Below, in pieces: positions 4,457 through 11,652 of a DNA stretch of 37,606 nt (the stretch's first letter is position 1; every line of letters starts with the position of its first letter). A program made the translations under genes and the position numbers. The stretch is from a virus. Taxonomy: Duplodnaviria; Caudoviricetes. Under the pieces are notes generated by a model that saw nothing but the letters and a program-made list of their open reading frames with translations, searched no databases and had not been told where the DNA came from. The DNA is taken from IMG/VR virus record IMGVR_UViG_3300030708_001737, positions 1 through 37,606 of that record, one strand, 5' to 3'.

Positions 4457-4819
4457 ATGTTTAACAATAGAGTTATTTTGAAGGGCAATTTGACTAAAGA
4501 TCCTGAGTACAAAAACGTATCAGAGAAAGATCTTGTTACTTTTAGAATTGCCGTTAACGAATCGGTTGGAAACGGTCGAGAAGAAACTGTTTACTTGGAT
4601 GTAGACGGTTGGGGTAGTCACGCGGCTTATGCACAGAATGTGACACTAAGCAAGGGGGATCGTGTGATTGTTGACGGACGGCTTCGTCAGCGAAGCTGGG
4701 AAGACAAGAATGGTGTATCCCGTACATCATACAGTGTTTTGCCAAGTACCTTCTCAAAGGTAGTCAAGCCTACCCGAGCTTTATCGGAGGAATCGGGAGC
4801 TGATTCTGACACCTTTTAG
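4457..4819 (+). CDS. ssb: single-stranded DNA-binding protein
   Basis: NRVILKGNLTKDPE, FRIAVN and KGDRVIVDGRLRQRSWEDKNG motifs; acidic tail ending in F. Confidence 0.95.
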   Translation: MFNNRVILKGNLTKDPEYKNVSEKDLVTFRIAVNESVGNGREETVYLDVDGWGSHAAYAQNVTLSKGDRVIVDGRLRQRSWEDKNGVSRTSYSVLPSTFSKVVKPTRALSEESGADSDTF

Positions 4820-4830
4820 ACCGTAGCAAT

Positions 4831-4880
4831 GAAGACTAGCTCGATGGCCTCTTCAGCGGGGTCATCGGGTTGGCTTCTTT
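4831..4880 (+). terminator. long G.U-rich stem-loop after ssb (terminator or processing element)
   Basis: 4836-4851 pairs with 4858-4873 (16 bp, 5 G.U), plus GAAG/CTTC, followed by a short T run. Confidence 0.6.
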
Positions 4881-4886
4881 AATATT

Positions 4887-5087
4887 ATGAAAAACATCAA
4901 CTCACAAATAAAAGATCTAGACGACAGAATACACGTACTTTCTGAGCGTTCTTACTCGCCAGAAATATCTGGTTCAGAGTTAAGAGAAATAAACAAACGT
5001 AAGAAAAAGCTTCTTAAAAATAAGAAGAAACTATTGAAAAAAATTGAGCATAATCAAGATCAATTAGACTATAATGAATTAGACTAG
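4887..5087 (+). CDS. small coiled-coil hypothetical protein (66 aa)
   Basis: ATG-started ORF in the + strand gene run. Confidence 0.55.
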   Translation: MKNINSQIKDLDDRIHVLSERSYSPEISGSELREINKRKKKLLKNKKKLLKKIEHNQDQLDYNELD

Positions 5088-5105
5088 AGTAGCTTACTAG
5101 TCTAA

Positions 5106-5267
5106 GGAAGGTGGCTGAAAATACCGGAGCAAACCAGTGACGGTAACAGCACACGAGTCTCAACCGGACGGGCAAGTGCTATACATGGTTGAGATAGTGG
5201 TTAAAGTAGGCGACATGACATAACTGGTGCCGAAATTTGTGGGTAAAATGTAAATCCCACCCTTCCA
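5106..5267 (+). ncRNA. tRNA-shaped structured ncRNA with a pseudoknotted D-loop insertion
   Basis: GGAAGG 5106-5111 pairs with CCTTCC 5261-5266. T-arm-like GTGGG/CCCAC. D-arm halves TGGCTGA and GTGGTTAAAGT. Four further helices: TACCG/CGGTA, ACCAGT/ACTGGT, AGCAC/GTGCT, TCTCAACC/GGTTGAGA. Lies in a non-coding gap. Confidence 0.7.
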
Positions 5268-5328
5268 TTTTTATACAAACTGTGCCGTTTTGGGCAGTTA
5301 AATTTCTTGCTAACATAGGAGAATTATA

Positions 5329-5751
5329 ATGGCTAATGTAGATAGACTAATGTCTAACCATCAACAATTATTTCGCACTCTATTTTCCAACTCTATTGGT
5401 ATGGACAGAGTGTTCAACCGTCTCACCAGCACAGAGACGAGTAATTTCCCGCCCTACAACATCATAAGACACGAAGACAGGGTTTCTGTAGAACTGGCTG
5501 TTGCCGGATATAAAAAAGAGAACATATCTGTCACGGTCAATGATGGAGTATTGAGCATCACAGGAAGCTGGGAACAAGAAGATAAGAATCACCTGCACAA
5601 AGGAATCTCTACTAAAGACTTCAAAAGGACTTTTAGTCTTGGCGAATATGTAGAGGTAAAATCTGCGGAACTAAAAGACGGTCTACTGAGAGTGTCGCTG
5701 GAAGAAGTTCTCCCGCCAGAGAAACAACTGAAAGAGATTAAAATAAAGTAA
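5329..5751 (+). CDS. hsp20: small heat-shock protein Hsp20 (IbpA-like)
   Basis: NFPPYNI, ELAVAGY, LHKGIS.KDFKRTFSL and AELKDGLL motifs. AGGAG RBS. Confidence 0.95.
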   Translation: MANVDRLMSNHQQLFRTLFSNSIGMDRVFNRLTSTETSNFPPYNIIRHEDRVSVELAVAGYKKENISVTVNDGVLSITGSWEQEDKNHLHKGISTKDFKRTFSLGEYVEVKSAELKDGLLRVSLEEVLPPEKQLKEIKIK

Positions 5752-5924: not shown

Positions 5925-6154
5925 AGAAACCAGATAGAAAGAAACAGCAAAAACAATTAGCAAGAGGAAAGAAAAAAGCACAGAAAGAACTGCTTAAAAA
6001 AAGGGAAGCAAAAAAGAAAAGAAAGATCAAGCTCGCTAAAAAAATAGCCGATAGAAGAGCAGACAGAGAGACTTTCAAAATGGAAGAGGAAATAAGAAAA
6101 CTTCAGGCAAAGCACGCTAAAAAAAATCCCGAACCGGTTGACAAACAGGATTAG
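5921..6154 (+). CDS. Lys-rich hypothetical protein (77 aa)
   Basis: ATG 5921 overlaps the upstream stop (ATGA). Very basic and helical. Confidence 0.65.
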   Translation: MKKPDRKKQQKQLARGKKKAQKELLKKREAKKKRKIKLAKKIADRRADRETFKMEEEIRKLQAKHAKKNPEPVDKQD

Positions 6155-6165
6155 TGGGTTATAAT
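6138..6165 (+). promoter_or_regulatory. sigma-70 consensus promoter
   Basis: TTGACA 6138-6143, 16-nt spacer, TATAAT 6160-6165. Same GTTGACAAA...GGTTATAATGA context as the 3729 promoter. Confidence 0.8.
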
Positions 6166-7323: not shown

Positions 7324-8583
7324 ATGTTAGATTTCATTTTCAATAGGAGAGAATTTCTTAGGATAGGATCTATAGGGGCAGGAATGACATTGGCGGGACT
7401 TACTGACGAAGCTTTTGCCGCTAACGCCCAGAGCTACGGAGACAAATCGGTTGTATGGGTTTGGCTAGGAGGAGGCCCCACTCAGTTTGAGACTTTTCAC
7501 GCCCCAAAAGACACTGTTCCAAGTGAATGGAGAGCGGTAAACGGTGCAAGACATGATTCTAAAACGAACATCACGCTAGGAGAAGACTGGCACGAGTTGT
7601 CCAAGCATACTTCAAAGCTAAATGTTGTTAATTCCTTTAGTCATAAAGACTCGTCGCACAGACAGGGAACGCATTTTATGATGACTGGGCACTATAACCC
7701 AGAAAGAACCACAACCTCAACCGCCAAGTACCCATCCTTTGGCTCTATCGTGTCTGCTGTGTATGGAACTAACCATCCTCAAAACGGCGTACCTTCTTAT
7801 GTTAAACAGGGAAAGATAGAAGGCGACGAAGGGGCTTGGCTTGGAGGGGCATATAAACCCTTTGACCCGTCCAATAAGGATAATCTTAAACCAAGAATCG
7901 AGATTGATAGATTCAACACTAGAAAAGATCTATTGGGAGCACTTGGCTCAGCGTCAAAAAGTATTCAGGGGAAGAGTGCTGATTCAGTTGGTTTCTATAA
8001 GGGACAAGCCTATGACGTGATTCTTGGTTCCGCTAAAGACGCATTTGCTACAGATCAGGAATCAGAAACGACAAAAGCTTTGTATGGTTCTGAAAAGGCT
8101 AACGACATTGGCGAACAAATGATCCTAGCAAGAAGACTCGTAGAACATGGAACCAAGTTTATCACCCTGCACTATGGCGGTTGGGATATGCATAGCAATA
8201 TTTCCAAAGCTCTAAAAGGAAAAGTTGCACCCATCGACAAGGCGATTTCAGGTTTTCTGCAAGATATTTGGGATCGGGGTCTAAACGAAAAAGTACTACT
8301 TGTTGTGACTGGTGAATTCGGAAGAACTAAAATTAATGCAAACAGTGGTCGTGATCACTGGCCTTCCATTACACCGATGATGATGGCAGGAGGCGAGTAT
8401 CAGTCAGGGAGGACTATTGGGGCGGCTGACAGATCCTATAGTCCTATCGACAATCCAGTAGGACCACTGGATTTACAAGCAACCTTATTTGACCACTTTG
8501 GAATTGAGCGTGGTACTCAACGCACAGATATGTCTGGGCGGCCAAGATATTTACTTGAAGGAGAAGCGAAGGTTATATTATAA
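7324..8583 (+). CDS. DUF1501 family protein, Tat-exported (copy 1)
   Basis: NRREFL signal ending in AFA. LGGGPTQFETF, YPSFGS, LARRLVE.G, GWDMH, GEFGRT and GRDHWP motifs. Confidence 0.9.
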   Translation: MLDFIFNRREFLRIGSIGAGMTLAGLTDEAFAANAQSYGDKSVVWVWLGGGPTQFETFHAPKDTVPSEWRAVNGARHDSKTNITLGEDWHELSKHTSKLNVVNSFSHKDSSHRQGTHFMMTGHYNPERTTTSTAKYPSFGSIVSAVYGTNHPQNGVPSYVKQGKIEGDEGAWLGGAYKPFDPSNKDNLKPRIEIDRFNTRKDLLGALGSASKSIQGKSADSVGFYKGQAYDVILGSAKDAFATDQESETTKALYGSEKANDIGEQMILARRLVEHGTKFITLHYGGWDMHSNISKALKGKVAPIDKAISGFLQDIWDRGLNEKVLLVVTGEFGRTKINANSGRDHWPSITPMMMAGGEYQSGRTIGAADRSYSPIDNPVGPLDLQATLFDHFGIERGTQRTDMSGRPRYLLEGEAKVIL

Positions 8584-9839
8584 TGGACAGAAGATCTTTT
8601 TTACATACTGGAATCTTAGGAGCTTTTGGTACGTCTTTAGCTATGGCGGATCAAAAGCACTATGACAGCAAAGAGGGACCGGCAAAGAGCATTATATTTA
8701 TTTATCTACCGGGGGGAATGGCTCATCAGGAAACTTTCGATCCTAAACCATTTGCACCTCTTGAATATCGTGGTCCGCTGGGAAGTATAGAAACAGTAGC
8801 TCCGGGTATTCGGGTGGGAGAACTCTTAAAGAAAACCGCCAAGGTTACAGACAAGCTGACGATTATAAGAAGCCTAACTCACGGAGAAGCTGCTCATGAA
8901 CGTGGCACACACAATATGTTTACTGGCTATAGACCTAGCCCAGCCCTTCAATACCCATCAATGGGTTCAGTGGTTGCACATGAATTCGGCCCTCGCAAAA
9001 ATCTTCCTCCGTATGTCTGTATCCCAAACCAGCCTAACGAATTTGCAGGTACTGGATATTTAAGTAGCTCATATTCTGGGTTTGGTTTAGGGTCTGACCC
9101 CGCTAGTAACGACTTCCAAGTTAGAGATCTTAAGCTTCCAGTTCCGGACGAAAGGTTTGCAAGAAGGCAACGTGTACTTAATGTAGTAAATACCAACTTT
9201 AACAAAAAGCAGAACGCCGACTCTGTAAAGGCGATGAACTCTTTTTATGAGCGTGCATATAGTTTGATAGGAGATCAAAACGCAAAGGACGCTTTCGACA
9301 TAGAGAAAGAATCAGCACAGACAAGAGACAAGTATGGCAGAAATACTGCGGGTGCTAGAATGCTTCTTGCCCGAAGGCTGGTTGAATTTGGAACACGTTT
9401 TGTTACTCTTACCTACGGCGGATGGGACATGCATGATAACATAGCTAATGGCATGAATAGTCAGCTACCGGCTTTCGACCAAGGGTTTGCAAGTCTTATC
9501 GAAGATTTAGATCAGCGTGGTTTACTAGAATCAACTCTAGTCTGCGTTGTTTCTGAGTTTGGAAGAACCCCAAAGATCAACAATCGTGCAGGAAGAGACC
9601 ACTGGCCAAAAGTGTTTAGCACAGTGCTTGCTGGTGGTGGAATCAAGGGGGGAATGACATATGGAACCTCAAACGCCACCGCGAGCGAGCCAGACCAAAA
9701 TCCAGTCAACATAGAGGACTGGGCTGCTACCATCTACAATAGATTAGGAATAGTTGCCGATAAAGAACTAATGGCTCCGGGCGAAAGACCCATCGAGATC
9801 GTAGACGGCGGTAAAGTTTTAACAGACATTATTACATAA
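8583..9839 (+). CDS. DUF1501 family protein, Tat-exported (copy 2)
   Basis: DRRSFL signal ending in AMA. GGMAHQETFDPKP, IIRS, PSMGS, LLARRLVE, GWDMH, SEFGRTP and GRDHWP motifs. Confidence 0.92.
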   Translation: MDRRSFLHTGILGAFGTSLAMADQKHYDSKEGPAKSIIFIYLPGGMAHQETFDPKPFAPLEYRGPLGSIETVAPGIRVGELLKKTAKVTDKLTIIRSLTHGEAAHERGTHNMFTGYRPSPALQYPSMGSVVAHEFGPRKNLPPYVCIPNQPNEFAGTGYLSSSYSGFGLGSDPASNDFQVRDLKLPVPDERFARRQRVLNVVNTNFNKKQNADSVKAMNSFYERAYSLIGDQNAKDAFDIEKESAQTRDKYGRNTAGARMLLARRLVEFGTRFVTLTYGGWDMHDNIANGMNSQLPAFDQGFASLIEDLDQRGLLESTLVCVVSEFGRTPKINNRAGRDHWPKVFSTVLAGGGIKGGMTYGTSNATASEPDQNPVNIEDWAATIYNRLGIVADKELMAPGERPIEIVDGGKVLTDIIT

Positions 9840-10440: not shown

Positions 10441-11652
10441 ATGAAAAGAAGAGAATTTCTATCGTCATTAGCTGGAGTCGCAGCACTCACCAATACGTTA
10501 AAAGCTAATGAGCAACAGCTAAAGAAAAATGGTAAATCGGCCATTCTCTTATGGATGGGAGGTGGCCCTTCTACTATGGATATTTGGGACTTGAAGCCAA
10601 ACACGCCAACGGGCGGCCCATTCAAACCAATCGCAACTAGTGGCGATGTGCAGATAAGCGAACATATGCCGTTAATGGCAAAGCAGATGCACAACATGGC
10701 TATCGTCCGTAGCATGAGCACCCGTGAAGCAGACCATATGCGTGGCAGGTATTATATGCACACAGGTTATGTTCCAAGCCAAAGCATGGTTCATCCAAGC
10801 TACGGCTCTGTTATCTCTAAGCAGCTAGACAGGGGCCTTATGATTCCACAGTTCATCTCTGTAAATGGCGGGAGCATGGGGGCTGGGTTCTTGGGGGCAG
10901 AGTTTGCACCTTTAATTCTAAATAGTGATGGCAACATCAGAAACCTCAATATGAAAATAGATGAAAGATTTTATCAAAGAGCACAAGTTCTTGATATGAT
11001 AGAAACTAATTTTATCAATAGCAACAGAGGAAGTATGGCAAAGGAGCATCAAAAAGTACTTAGAAAAACTTTTAATGTTCTAACTAGTACAGAGATGGAC
11101 GCAACAAAAGTAGCCAAGGAACCCGAATCTGTGAGAGAGAGATATGGAGACAATAGCTTTGGCAAGGGATGTCTAATGGCTAGAAGATTAGTGGAAGTTG
11201 GCGTGCCTTTTGTCGAGGTGGGCTTAGGAGGATGGGACAACCATCAAAATATCTTCCCAACATTAAGAGACGAAAAGCTACCCATGCTCGATCAGGGTAT
11301 GAGTGCTTTGGTAGAGGACTTAGAGCAGAGAGGACTACTAGAGGATACGGCTATCATATGGATGGGCGAATTTAGTAGAACCCCACGTATCAACCAAAAC
11401 GCTGGTCGTGACCACTGGGCACGAAGCTGGAGTGTGGTTGTAGGCGGTGCCGGTATGAAGGGCGGCATAGCCGTTGGTGCTACAAATGAAGATGGTACTA
11501 GAGTAGAAACAGAACCATATTCCTCCCAAGATGTCATGGCTTCGGTATGCAAAGCACTTGGCATTTCGCTACAAACCACTTACACGAGTAATAGTGGGCG
11601 ACCTATGAAAATAGCTAATTCAGGAAAAGTGATTACTGAACTATTTTCTTAA
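10441..11652 (+). CDS. DUF1501 family protein, Tat-exported (copy 3)
   Basis: ATG 10441 gives MKRREFL. WMGGGPSTMDIWDLKP, IVRSM, HPSYGS, CLMARRLVEVGV, GWDNH, GEFSRTP and GRDHW motifs. Confidence 0.92.
   Translation: MKRREFLSSLAGVAALTNTLKANEQQLKKNGKSAILLWMGGGPSTMDIWDLKPNTPTGGPFKPIATSGDVQISEHMPLMAKQMHNMAIVRSMSTREADHMRGRYYMHTGYVPSQSMVHPSYGSVISKQLDRGLMIPQFISVNGGSMGAGFLGAEFAPLILNSDGNIRNLNMKIDERFYQRAQVLDMIETNFINSNRGSMAKEHQKVLRKTFNVLTSTEMDATKVAKEPESVRERYGDNSFGKGCLMARRLVEVGVPFVEVGLGGWDNHQNIFPTLRDEKLPMLDQGMSALVEDLEQRGLLEDTAIIWMGEFSRTPRINQNAGRDHWARSWSVVVGGAGMKGGIAVGATNEDGTRVETEPYSSQDVMASVCKALGISLQTTYTSNSGRPMKIANSGKVITELFS

Follow-up and report, generated by a model that had tools for sequence, protein, structure and literature searches.

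A phage manA RNA subtype without P5 and P7, whose tRNA-like core is exchanged between loci

Introduction

The stretch of DNA analysed here (the window; 37,606 nucleotides) is the whole of a 37.6-kb virus record that is estimated to be ~24% complete. Between its ssb and hsp20 genes lies a sequence with the outline of a tRNA, and the question that it raises is what kind of RNA, if any, is encoded at this position. A first-pass annotation, made from the letters alone, described a tRNA-shaped non-coding RNA with a 78-nt double-pseudoknot insertion in its D-loop and suggested that this might be a decoy, a Y-RNA-like molecule, a ribozyme-containing element or a switch upstream of hsp20. Here, we find that the element, which comes from an uncultured marine phage, is a real, conserved and folded RNA gene, and that it is a variant of the known manA family rather than a new kind of RNA. 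What is new is a manA subtype without P5 and P7 that is missed by Rfam, together with the exchange of cores between loci.

Results

The phage record and its likely host

Besides ssb and hsp20, the record encodes a dCMP deaminase, a UvsX-like recombinase, a ribonucleotide reductase, PhoH, a sigma factor and three DUF1501 genes (Table 1), with three to four of the latter per phage record across the window and the related records G001-G003. For one of the window's DUF1501 proteins the closest Atlas clusters were one viral and two bacterial, the bacterial ones with Planctomycetota commonest, and the top plasmid match of that protein came from Singulisphaera (33.5%). These protein matches provide a lead towards a planctomycete host; no paper describing DUF1501 in planctomycete phages was found in the open literature. 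The sequencing runs that contain the region are marine for the most part. The window also holds a terminator-like hairpin of 16 pairs 3′ of ssb (4836-4873) and a perfect TTGACA-16-TATAAT promoter at 6138-6165. A small conserved hairpin (5278-5299) separates the RNA from the ribosome-binding site of hsp20, and is also found in L016, L020, L169 and L178; its folding energy is no better than that of shuffled sequences.

Relatives of the window RNA

Viral contigs were searched for relatives in four pattern scans (12, 12, 58 and 21 loci) and metagenomes in one (57 loci), and 55 phage hsp20 loci were added. A filter requiring the 5′ motif and both terminal helices took 216 loci to 70 distinct cores, many of which are near-duplicates, and lost some real members that were later recovered by a model built from the window's subtype (R1), namely L160, L162, L179, the truncated L213 and the divergent L032. 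The last of these (L032:689-915) is a longer relative that scores 34 bits with R1 and lies directly 3′ of a tmRNA gene. The 70 cores fall into three subtypes: A with 31 cores, B with 26, the window among them, and C with 13. Members of the last (e.g. L110, L114, L122 and L011) have an additional hairpin within P8 and a longer L9. Relatives were found on phage-like contigs only, with one RNA match in each of three longer related records. The sole match in a prokaryote genome, from a pattern limited to cores beginning GGAA, was dismissed as chance because it sits inside a coding gene and has no R1 score, and blastn against cultured phages returned four short chance matches only.

Secondary structure

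The region 5075-5275 folds with an energy of -65 kcal/mol (z -4.5), which none of 200 shuffled sequences equalled. Covariation was assessed in an alignment (A1) of 24 of the 26 subtype B cores, from which L193, containing an N, and L006, whose 11-nt deletion takes out the L3 strand, were omitted; the deletion, on a contig shared with L017, L109 and L204, is either a natural loss or an assembly error near the contig end. Including the L3-L8 pairing, and with the long P4 stem counted as 5159-65/5187-93, 96% of the 1248 cells of the structure are paired in A1 and two-sided change is seen in 31 of the 52 pairs, compared with 40-45% pairing in slid controls (relatedness uncorrected). This level of compensatory change among homologues rules out a decayed pseudo-tRNA.

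Much of the structure read in the first-pass annotation was borne out, and all of the letters that it quoted were confirmed in place. The acceptor-like stem (P2; GGAAGG/CCTTCC, followed by A5267) is paired in 24/24 rows, with three of its six pairs compensatory. Covariation across the 24 aligned relatives likewise supports the P3 hairpin (TACCG/CGGTA), the long stem of 8 bp formed by TCTCAACC (5158-65) and GGTTGAGA (5187-94), the T-like stem GTGGG/CCCAC with its 12-nt loop, and the pairing of the ACCAGU loop with ACUGGU. The 9-bp 5′ hairpin P1 (5079-87/5097-5105) shows two-sided change in 10/10 pairs and is 82% paired in what is an imperfect alignment. Its loop reads U(A/C/U)GC(U/C) in 68 of the 69 cores whose flank is long enough. 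Whether such loops kiss through a self-pairing AGCU is doubtful, given that the palindrome is broken in 13 of the 68. A kink-turn in the P4/P6 internal loop was a poor fit by inspection, and an all-against-all covariation list was for the most part noise among the pairs listed.

Other parts of the fold had to be redrawn. The second half of the D-arm had been placed at 5197-5207, beyond the 78-nt insert. The GCU(G) strand pairs instead with the nested CAGC at 5147-50, in 70/70 cores and with G-C/A-U and C-G swaps, so the D-stem closes there and the insert at the D-loop position is ~26 nt rather than 78. The distal motif pairs in 34/70 cores and is missing or disrupted in 30 of the 31 subtype A cores; that it can pair in 25 of the 26 B cores, compared with 1/31 in A, follows from the strand being nearly invariant in B. 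The arm at 5209-31, taken to be anticodon-like, is at the variable-arm position, with support for its three outer pairs only. As for the two pseudoknots, the ACCAGT/ACTGGT pairing stands, whereas the crossing helix AGCAC/GTGCT falls: it is whole in 8/24 rows, has no two-sided change, is equalled by 500/500 shuffles and competes for bases with three supported helices.

Table 1. Positions of the RNA, its parts and its neighbours in the window
Feature	Position	Strand	Remarks
ssb	4457-4819	+	PHROG 44; upstream marker of the RNA insertion site; gene order shared by L016 and L020
TATAAT, likely the -10 box of a promoter belonging to the RNA itself	5070-5075	+	No consensus -35 in the window
P1, 5′ hairpin	5079-5105	+	Loop UAGCU at 5090-94; the stop codon of ORF 4887-5087 lies within the hairpin
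tRNA-like core	5106-5267	+	P2 acceptor-like stem 5106-11/5261-66, unpaired A5267; basis: relatives' pairing, manA match 5080-5270
D-arm-like domain	5112-5151	+	U5112 G5113; stem 5114-17/5147-50; A5118 A5119; inserted hairpin 5122-26/5141-45 with L3; A5146, A5151
L3 strand ACCAGU	5133-5138	+	Partner 5223-28; basis: covariation in A1, duplex test over 70 cores
P4 arm, anticodon-arm position	5152-5199	+	5152-54/5197-99; 5158-65/5187-94; no P5/P7 (against the Rfam consensus)
P6, small hairpin within the P4 arm	5171-73/5178-80	+	AAGU loop
P8, variable-arm position	5209-5231	+	5209-11/5229-31; loop L8 with ACAU 5218-21 (L9 partner) and ACUGGU 5223-28 (L3 partner)
U5238 (U48 position) and P9 T-arm-like stem	5238-5260	+	Stem 5239-43/5256-60; 12-nt loop L9 UA...AAU; AUGU 5248-51 can pair with 5218-21
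T-run, likely 3′ end signal	5268-5272	+	Directly after the unpaired A; no encoded CCA
hsp20	5329-5751	+	PHROG 432, PF00011; neighbour rather than target of the RNA
DUF1501 genes	7324-8583, 8583-9839, 10441-11652

Loop-loop pairings

In A1 the L3-L8 pairing is complete in 24/24 rows (144/144 cells) through four different loop codes, with 5/6 pairs compensatory. Over all 70 cores, 60 form 6-7 Watson-Crick pairs with their own partner, compared with 6% of 3094 cross-subtype controls, and many different codes occur across the three subtypes. A further contact between L8 and L9, ACAU with AUGU, was spotted on inspection and forms 4/4 pairs in the window. With L112 dropped and L119 unanchored, 37 of the 39 cores of subtypes B and C were scored, and in these the contact is Watson-Crick in 112/148 cells against 89.6 when shuffled (0/10000), for a register picked post hoc and with relatedness uncontrolled; for distinct combinations the figures are 48/64 against 37.1 (1/10000), again in the post hoc register. 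All four pairs are present in 12 of the 37 rows, three in 14 and two in 11, and four of the 11 scored C cores are complete; the swaps seen are U-A/G-C and A-U/C-G. On this comparison of sequences, L8-L9 may be a second loop contact, weaker than L3-L8 and distinct from the crossing helix rejected above. Pairing of AUGUA in L9 with UACAU (5183-87) was also considered and rejected as it is lost in relatives. The covariation signal is identical for pairing inside one molecule and for pairing between molecules.

Membership of the manA family

A permissive Rfam scan matched the window to manA (RF01745) from end to end (window 5080-5270, model positions 1-192) at 29 bits (E 1.3e-5). This falls short of the manA gathering cut-off of 55.2 bits, which is a curation threshold, and at the gathering score Rfam has zero matches in the window. 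Amongst 29 scanned relatives, 20 matched manA and three passed the cut-off, all of subtype A (L003 59.5, L007 56.7 and L147 59.1 bits), whilst subtype B members scored 24-32 bits or were missed. Model R1 detects those same three at 70-91 bits, and the 56.7-bit locus (L007/L020) has the gene order of the window, ssb-orf-RNA-hsp20. Through these cut-off-passing relatives, model R1 and the shared synteny the window RNA is tied to manA despite its own low score, and we regard it as almost certainly a member of the family. The novelty relative to Rfam that the first-pass annotation had entertained is thereby largely lost.

The likeness extends over most of the molecule. Present in the window are the 5′ hairpin P1, followed by the terminal helix and then UGRCUGAA, the UAA-RGY strand, the P3, P4 and P8 arms in the same order around the central junction, and a 3′ GGUA...AAUCC hairpin (P9) stacked on the terminal helix, all within ~190 nt; the 2010 description (Weinberg et al. 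2010, PMC2864571) shares these traits as well as a phage location and neighbours including tRNAs and hsp20/ibpA, and has an L8-L9 pairing, for which the window carries a candidate. The window subtype differs in having no P5 or P7 hairpin, and hence no L5-L7 pseudoknot, in a P8 shortened to three pairs, in a terminal helix of 6 bp rather than 5 bp, and in a 6-bp L3-L8 pairing that is missing from the 2010 structure lines (PMC2864571). It belongs to a probable planctomycete phage, compared with the cyanophage or Photobacterium of manA. P5 and P7 appear to be modular, some rows of the 2010 alignment also being without them (PMC2864571). In 31/31 subtype A cores one G-C/C-G swap is seen at the corresponding internal loop and may be a remnant. 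When the Rfam helices are numbered in order, the two pseudoknots drawn in the 2010 alignment (PMC2864571) fall at L5-L7 and L8-L9, which supports our helix mapping; the numbers were aligned to those of a recent preprint (10.64898/2026.07.01.735769, main text) by order alone. No paper on a manA subtype without P5 and P7 in DUF1501-bearing phages, or on any function for one, was found in the open literature, subscription journals lying outside that coverage.

Likeness to tRNA

The arms of the core follow each other as in a class II tRNA, which has a long variable arm: the acceptor-like P2, U8-G9, a D-like arm whose loop contains a hairpin, A26, P4 at the anticodon position, P8 at the variable position, U48, the T-like P9 and an unpaired A. 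The letters shared with such a tRNA, as checked against the Rfam tRNA consensus, are U8, R9, C11, A14, A15, A21, G24, R26, U48, G52, G53, U54, A58, U60, C61 and A73. U8, A14, A15, A21, G24, U48, G52, G53, U54, A58 and C61 are invariant in 70/70 cores and A73 is found in 68/70; positions 8-15 and 53-55 were selected for by the search patterns, whereas U48 is in no pattern, and U48, A58, C61, C62 and A73 are kept in 12/12 cores retrieved solely by an internal motif. The Rfam manA consensus has the same core letters, as does the manA annotated in phage S-CREM1, which lies flush between tRNA-Leu and tRNA-Asn. In tRNA itself, U8-A14-A21, A15-U48 and U54-A58 are inner tertiary contacts. The tRNA-shaped core proposed by the first-pass annotation is upheld.

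The same annotation had concluded that this is a structured non-coding RNA and not a decoding tRNA, and here too we agree. There is no 7-nt anticodon loop on a 5-bp stem, no G18G19, no U55-C56 and no TUC (UUC) in the T-loop; the acceptor has 6 bp rather than 7, so that acceptor and T stem total 11 bp rather than 12, no CCA is encoded, the D- and T-loops are larger (the T-like loop, UA...AAU, has 12-16 nt in 70/70 cores) and there is an additional 5′ hairpin. Neither ARAGORN nor the Rfam tRNA model (RF00005) made a call at the element, and ARAGORN called no tRNA in the window. Applied to real tRNA genes, model R1 gave at best ~9.5 bits (E 0.04), which is no significant model-level homology. A cloverleaf link of 13 bits between tRNA and manA was reported by CMCompare and deemed presumably false yet worth study (PMC3692125). 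The word 'tRNA' has no occurrence in the main text of the preprint, the figures and supplement of which may show the likeness or the subtype (10.64898/2026.07.01.735769). We lean towards a scaffold derived from tRNA. An atypical tRNA-Ile with a TAT anticodon (31-40 Rfam bits) occurs in L015, L147 and L221-L223, in a small cluster with Met, Arg and Glu tRNAs, none of which encodes a full CCA.

Genomic context, ends and expression

A promoter scan of the window did not call the TATAAT upstream of P1 (Table 1). The close relative L016 has TTGACA-17-TGnTATAAT at the equivalent place, and a -10-like box stands 26-45 nt 5′ of the core in 20/69 cores compared with 2.1 in shuffles (near-duplicates counted). 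On the 3′ side of the unpaired A, at least four of the next six nucleotides are T in 56/70 cores and CC follows in 0/70. The neighbours vary widely. Of the 63 cores whose flank is long enough, 12 have an hsp20 start within 250 nt downstream. Among all 70, 13 have a tRNA no more than 110 nt away (12 of them from one site), six have a tmRNA 5′ end 13-18 nt downstream (five confirmed) and eight a fresh promoter within 60 nt downstream; of 55 phage hsp20 loci, one has an RNA relative, 2 kb apart. These island contexts, the RNA's own -10 box and the T-run do not fit a gene leader, and we consider a stand-alone RNA very probable. The tmRNAs downstream of the RNA in L203, L205, L206, L210, L214 and L201 encode the tag ADTSVLALAA and that of L027/L028 encodes AEKNFALAA; a phage tmRNA is also present in L032, and L141 has an 81-nt tmRNA-like piece just 5′ of P1.

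The RNA region was present in two of six metatranscriptome runs; three (X15-X17) cover ssb only. Contig X20 (5081-5239) begins at the predicted 5′ end and includes P1, X19 covers 5106-5286 and then runs into a relative's hsp20 leader, and X18 spans 5226-5414. These contigs are a hint only, as they give neither strand nor transcript ends and may be derived from DNA.

Comparison of flanks and cores revealed that cores have been swapped. Three upstream-flank clusters hold both A and B cores (8+4, 5+3 and 6+1), and A and B replace each other at one site, with P1 and flanks constant, in L015/L147, L013/L155, L208/L171 and window/L007. For L015/L147 the upstream 60 nt are identical and the cores 65% identical, whilst the likeness between cores from unrelated sites reaches 90-99%. 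The exchange needs no mobility mechanism, being explained by recombination between the conserved ends; selection for core variety is possible.

Discussion

The explanation that we favour, at a probability of roughly 55%, is that this is a trimmed phage manA with a tRNA-like core, acting as a stand-alone RNA of ~190 bases whose copies are linked via matching loops. In the main text of the preprint, cryo-EM resolves manA pentamers, decamers and a 60-mer held by the intermolecular contacts L5-L7′, L8-L9′ and L3-L8′ (10.64898/2026.07.01.735769). The window shares the L3-L8 and L8-L9 complementarity with that self-assembling manA, in which it acts between molecules, and lacks the L5-L7′ contact used, as described there, by both solved pentamers, so that its subtype appears to combine L3-L8 with L8-L9. 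By analogy with these relatives, assembly between RNA copies seems somewhat better than an even bet. The inner tRNA contacts (U8-A14-A21, A15-U48 and U54-A58) would hold a rigid L-shaped scaffold in which the enlarged D- and T-loops (L3 and L9) could stand in for the elbow contact. Given the supported helix mapping and the contacts of the preprint, the variable-arm loop L8 may dock on L3 and L9 at this tRNA-like elbow, likely that of a neighbouring copy, which would produce a head-to-tail ring or small closed oligomer. Since the L5-L7 contact of both published pentamers is absent, the assembly state is predicted to differ, with a smaller ring or a dimer being candidates.

The same variant could instead be a compact monomer in which L8 pairs with its own L3 and L9, rebuilding the elbow to give a single tRNA-shaped mimic. 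The L3-L8 and L8-L9 covariation is equally consistent with pairing in cis, the elbow of a tRNA fold is where L3 and L9 would both fall, and the subtype lacks the interface that L5-L7 forms in the solved pentamers. On the other side, contacts of the same number are intermolecular in the solved relatives, in the main text of the preprint (10.64898/2026.07.01.735769), and we treat the monomer as a less likely alternative. It is improbable, to our minds, that the RNA goes further and is a true tRNA mimic, cut by RNase P at 5106, provided with CCA and perhaps charged, or a decoy for enzymes directed against the 3′ ends of tRNAs. It is packed flush among tRNA and tmRNA genes, the core 5106-5267 moves between sites whilst P1 stays with the genomic site, an A occupies the discriminator position in 68/70 cores and adjacent tRNA genes also lack a full CCA; yet the acceptor has 6 bp, there is no G18G19/UUC elbow, and the conserved P1 loop suggests that P1 is retained, as it is in contig X20. 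No CCA-adding gene was found in three related, incomplete records. A decoy for anticodon nucleases, as the first-pass annotation had it, is unlikely because there is no anticodon loop.

That annotation's switch upstream of hsp20 would make the RNA a cis-acting riboswitch or thermosensor, as was first proposed for manA. The gene begins 62 nt 3′ of the RNA, contigs X18 and X19 from RNA runs extend into hsp20, and ibpA chaperones are among the genes that follow manA in the 2010 paper (PMC2864571). Set against this proximity, 51/63 cores have no hsp20 within 250 nt, near-identical cores are flanked by tRNA genes or stand ahead of a tmRNA or a fresh promoter, the single relative at 55 phage hsp20 loci is 2 kb off, and no alternative fold over the ribosome-binding site was found. 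We hence judge such a switch very unlikely, and these contexts argue against Rfam's cis-regulatory label for this branch of manA. Bacterial Y RNAs such as YrlA carry a tRNA-like domain inside a larger RNA, and that domain, the overall shape and the long-range pairing might suggest a Y-RNA-like adaptor, a ribozyme or, indeed, a decayed pseudo-tRNA. With no match to YrlA (RF02553) or to any Rfam ribozyme at the element, no TROVE/Ro60 gene in 3/3 related phage records (39-88% complete) and strong compensatory change excluding decay, this group of ideas is scarcely credible.

If copies of the trimmed manA do assemble, the stable oligomer might present several tRNA-like acceptor/T domains at once and, during infection, sequester a host factor that handles tRNA or acts against phages. 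This is the least certain step of the model, and such a decoy purpose is doubtful. Equally speculative is a wider view in which manA RNAs would be domesticated tRNAs, which kept the acceptor/D/T core, lost the anticodon and the elbow and placed L8 on a neighbour's elbow, forming protein-free rings as multivalent decoys against host tRNA-targeting defences. The window subtype would then be the minimal form, and core swapping would reflect selection that varies the assembly code whilst the tRNA-like face stays fixed.

manA has been without a function since 2010 and is now known to build RNA-only cages. The subtype described here drops one of the two cage contacts and, together with its natural series of loop codes, offers a small system in which to ask which contacts determine ring size and whether the loops pair in cis or in trans. 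The alignment also turns a dismissed 13-bit link between tRNA and manA into position-level predictions for the cryo-EM models.
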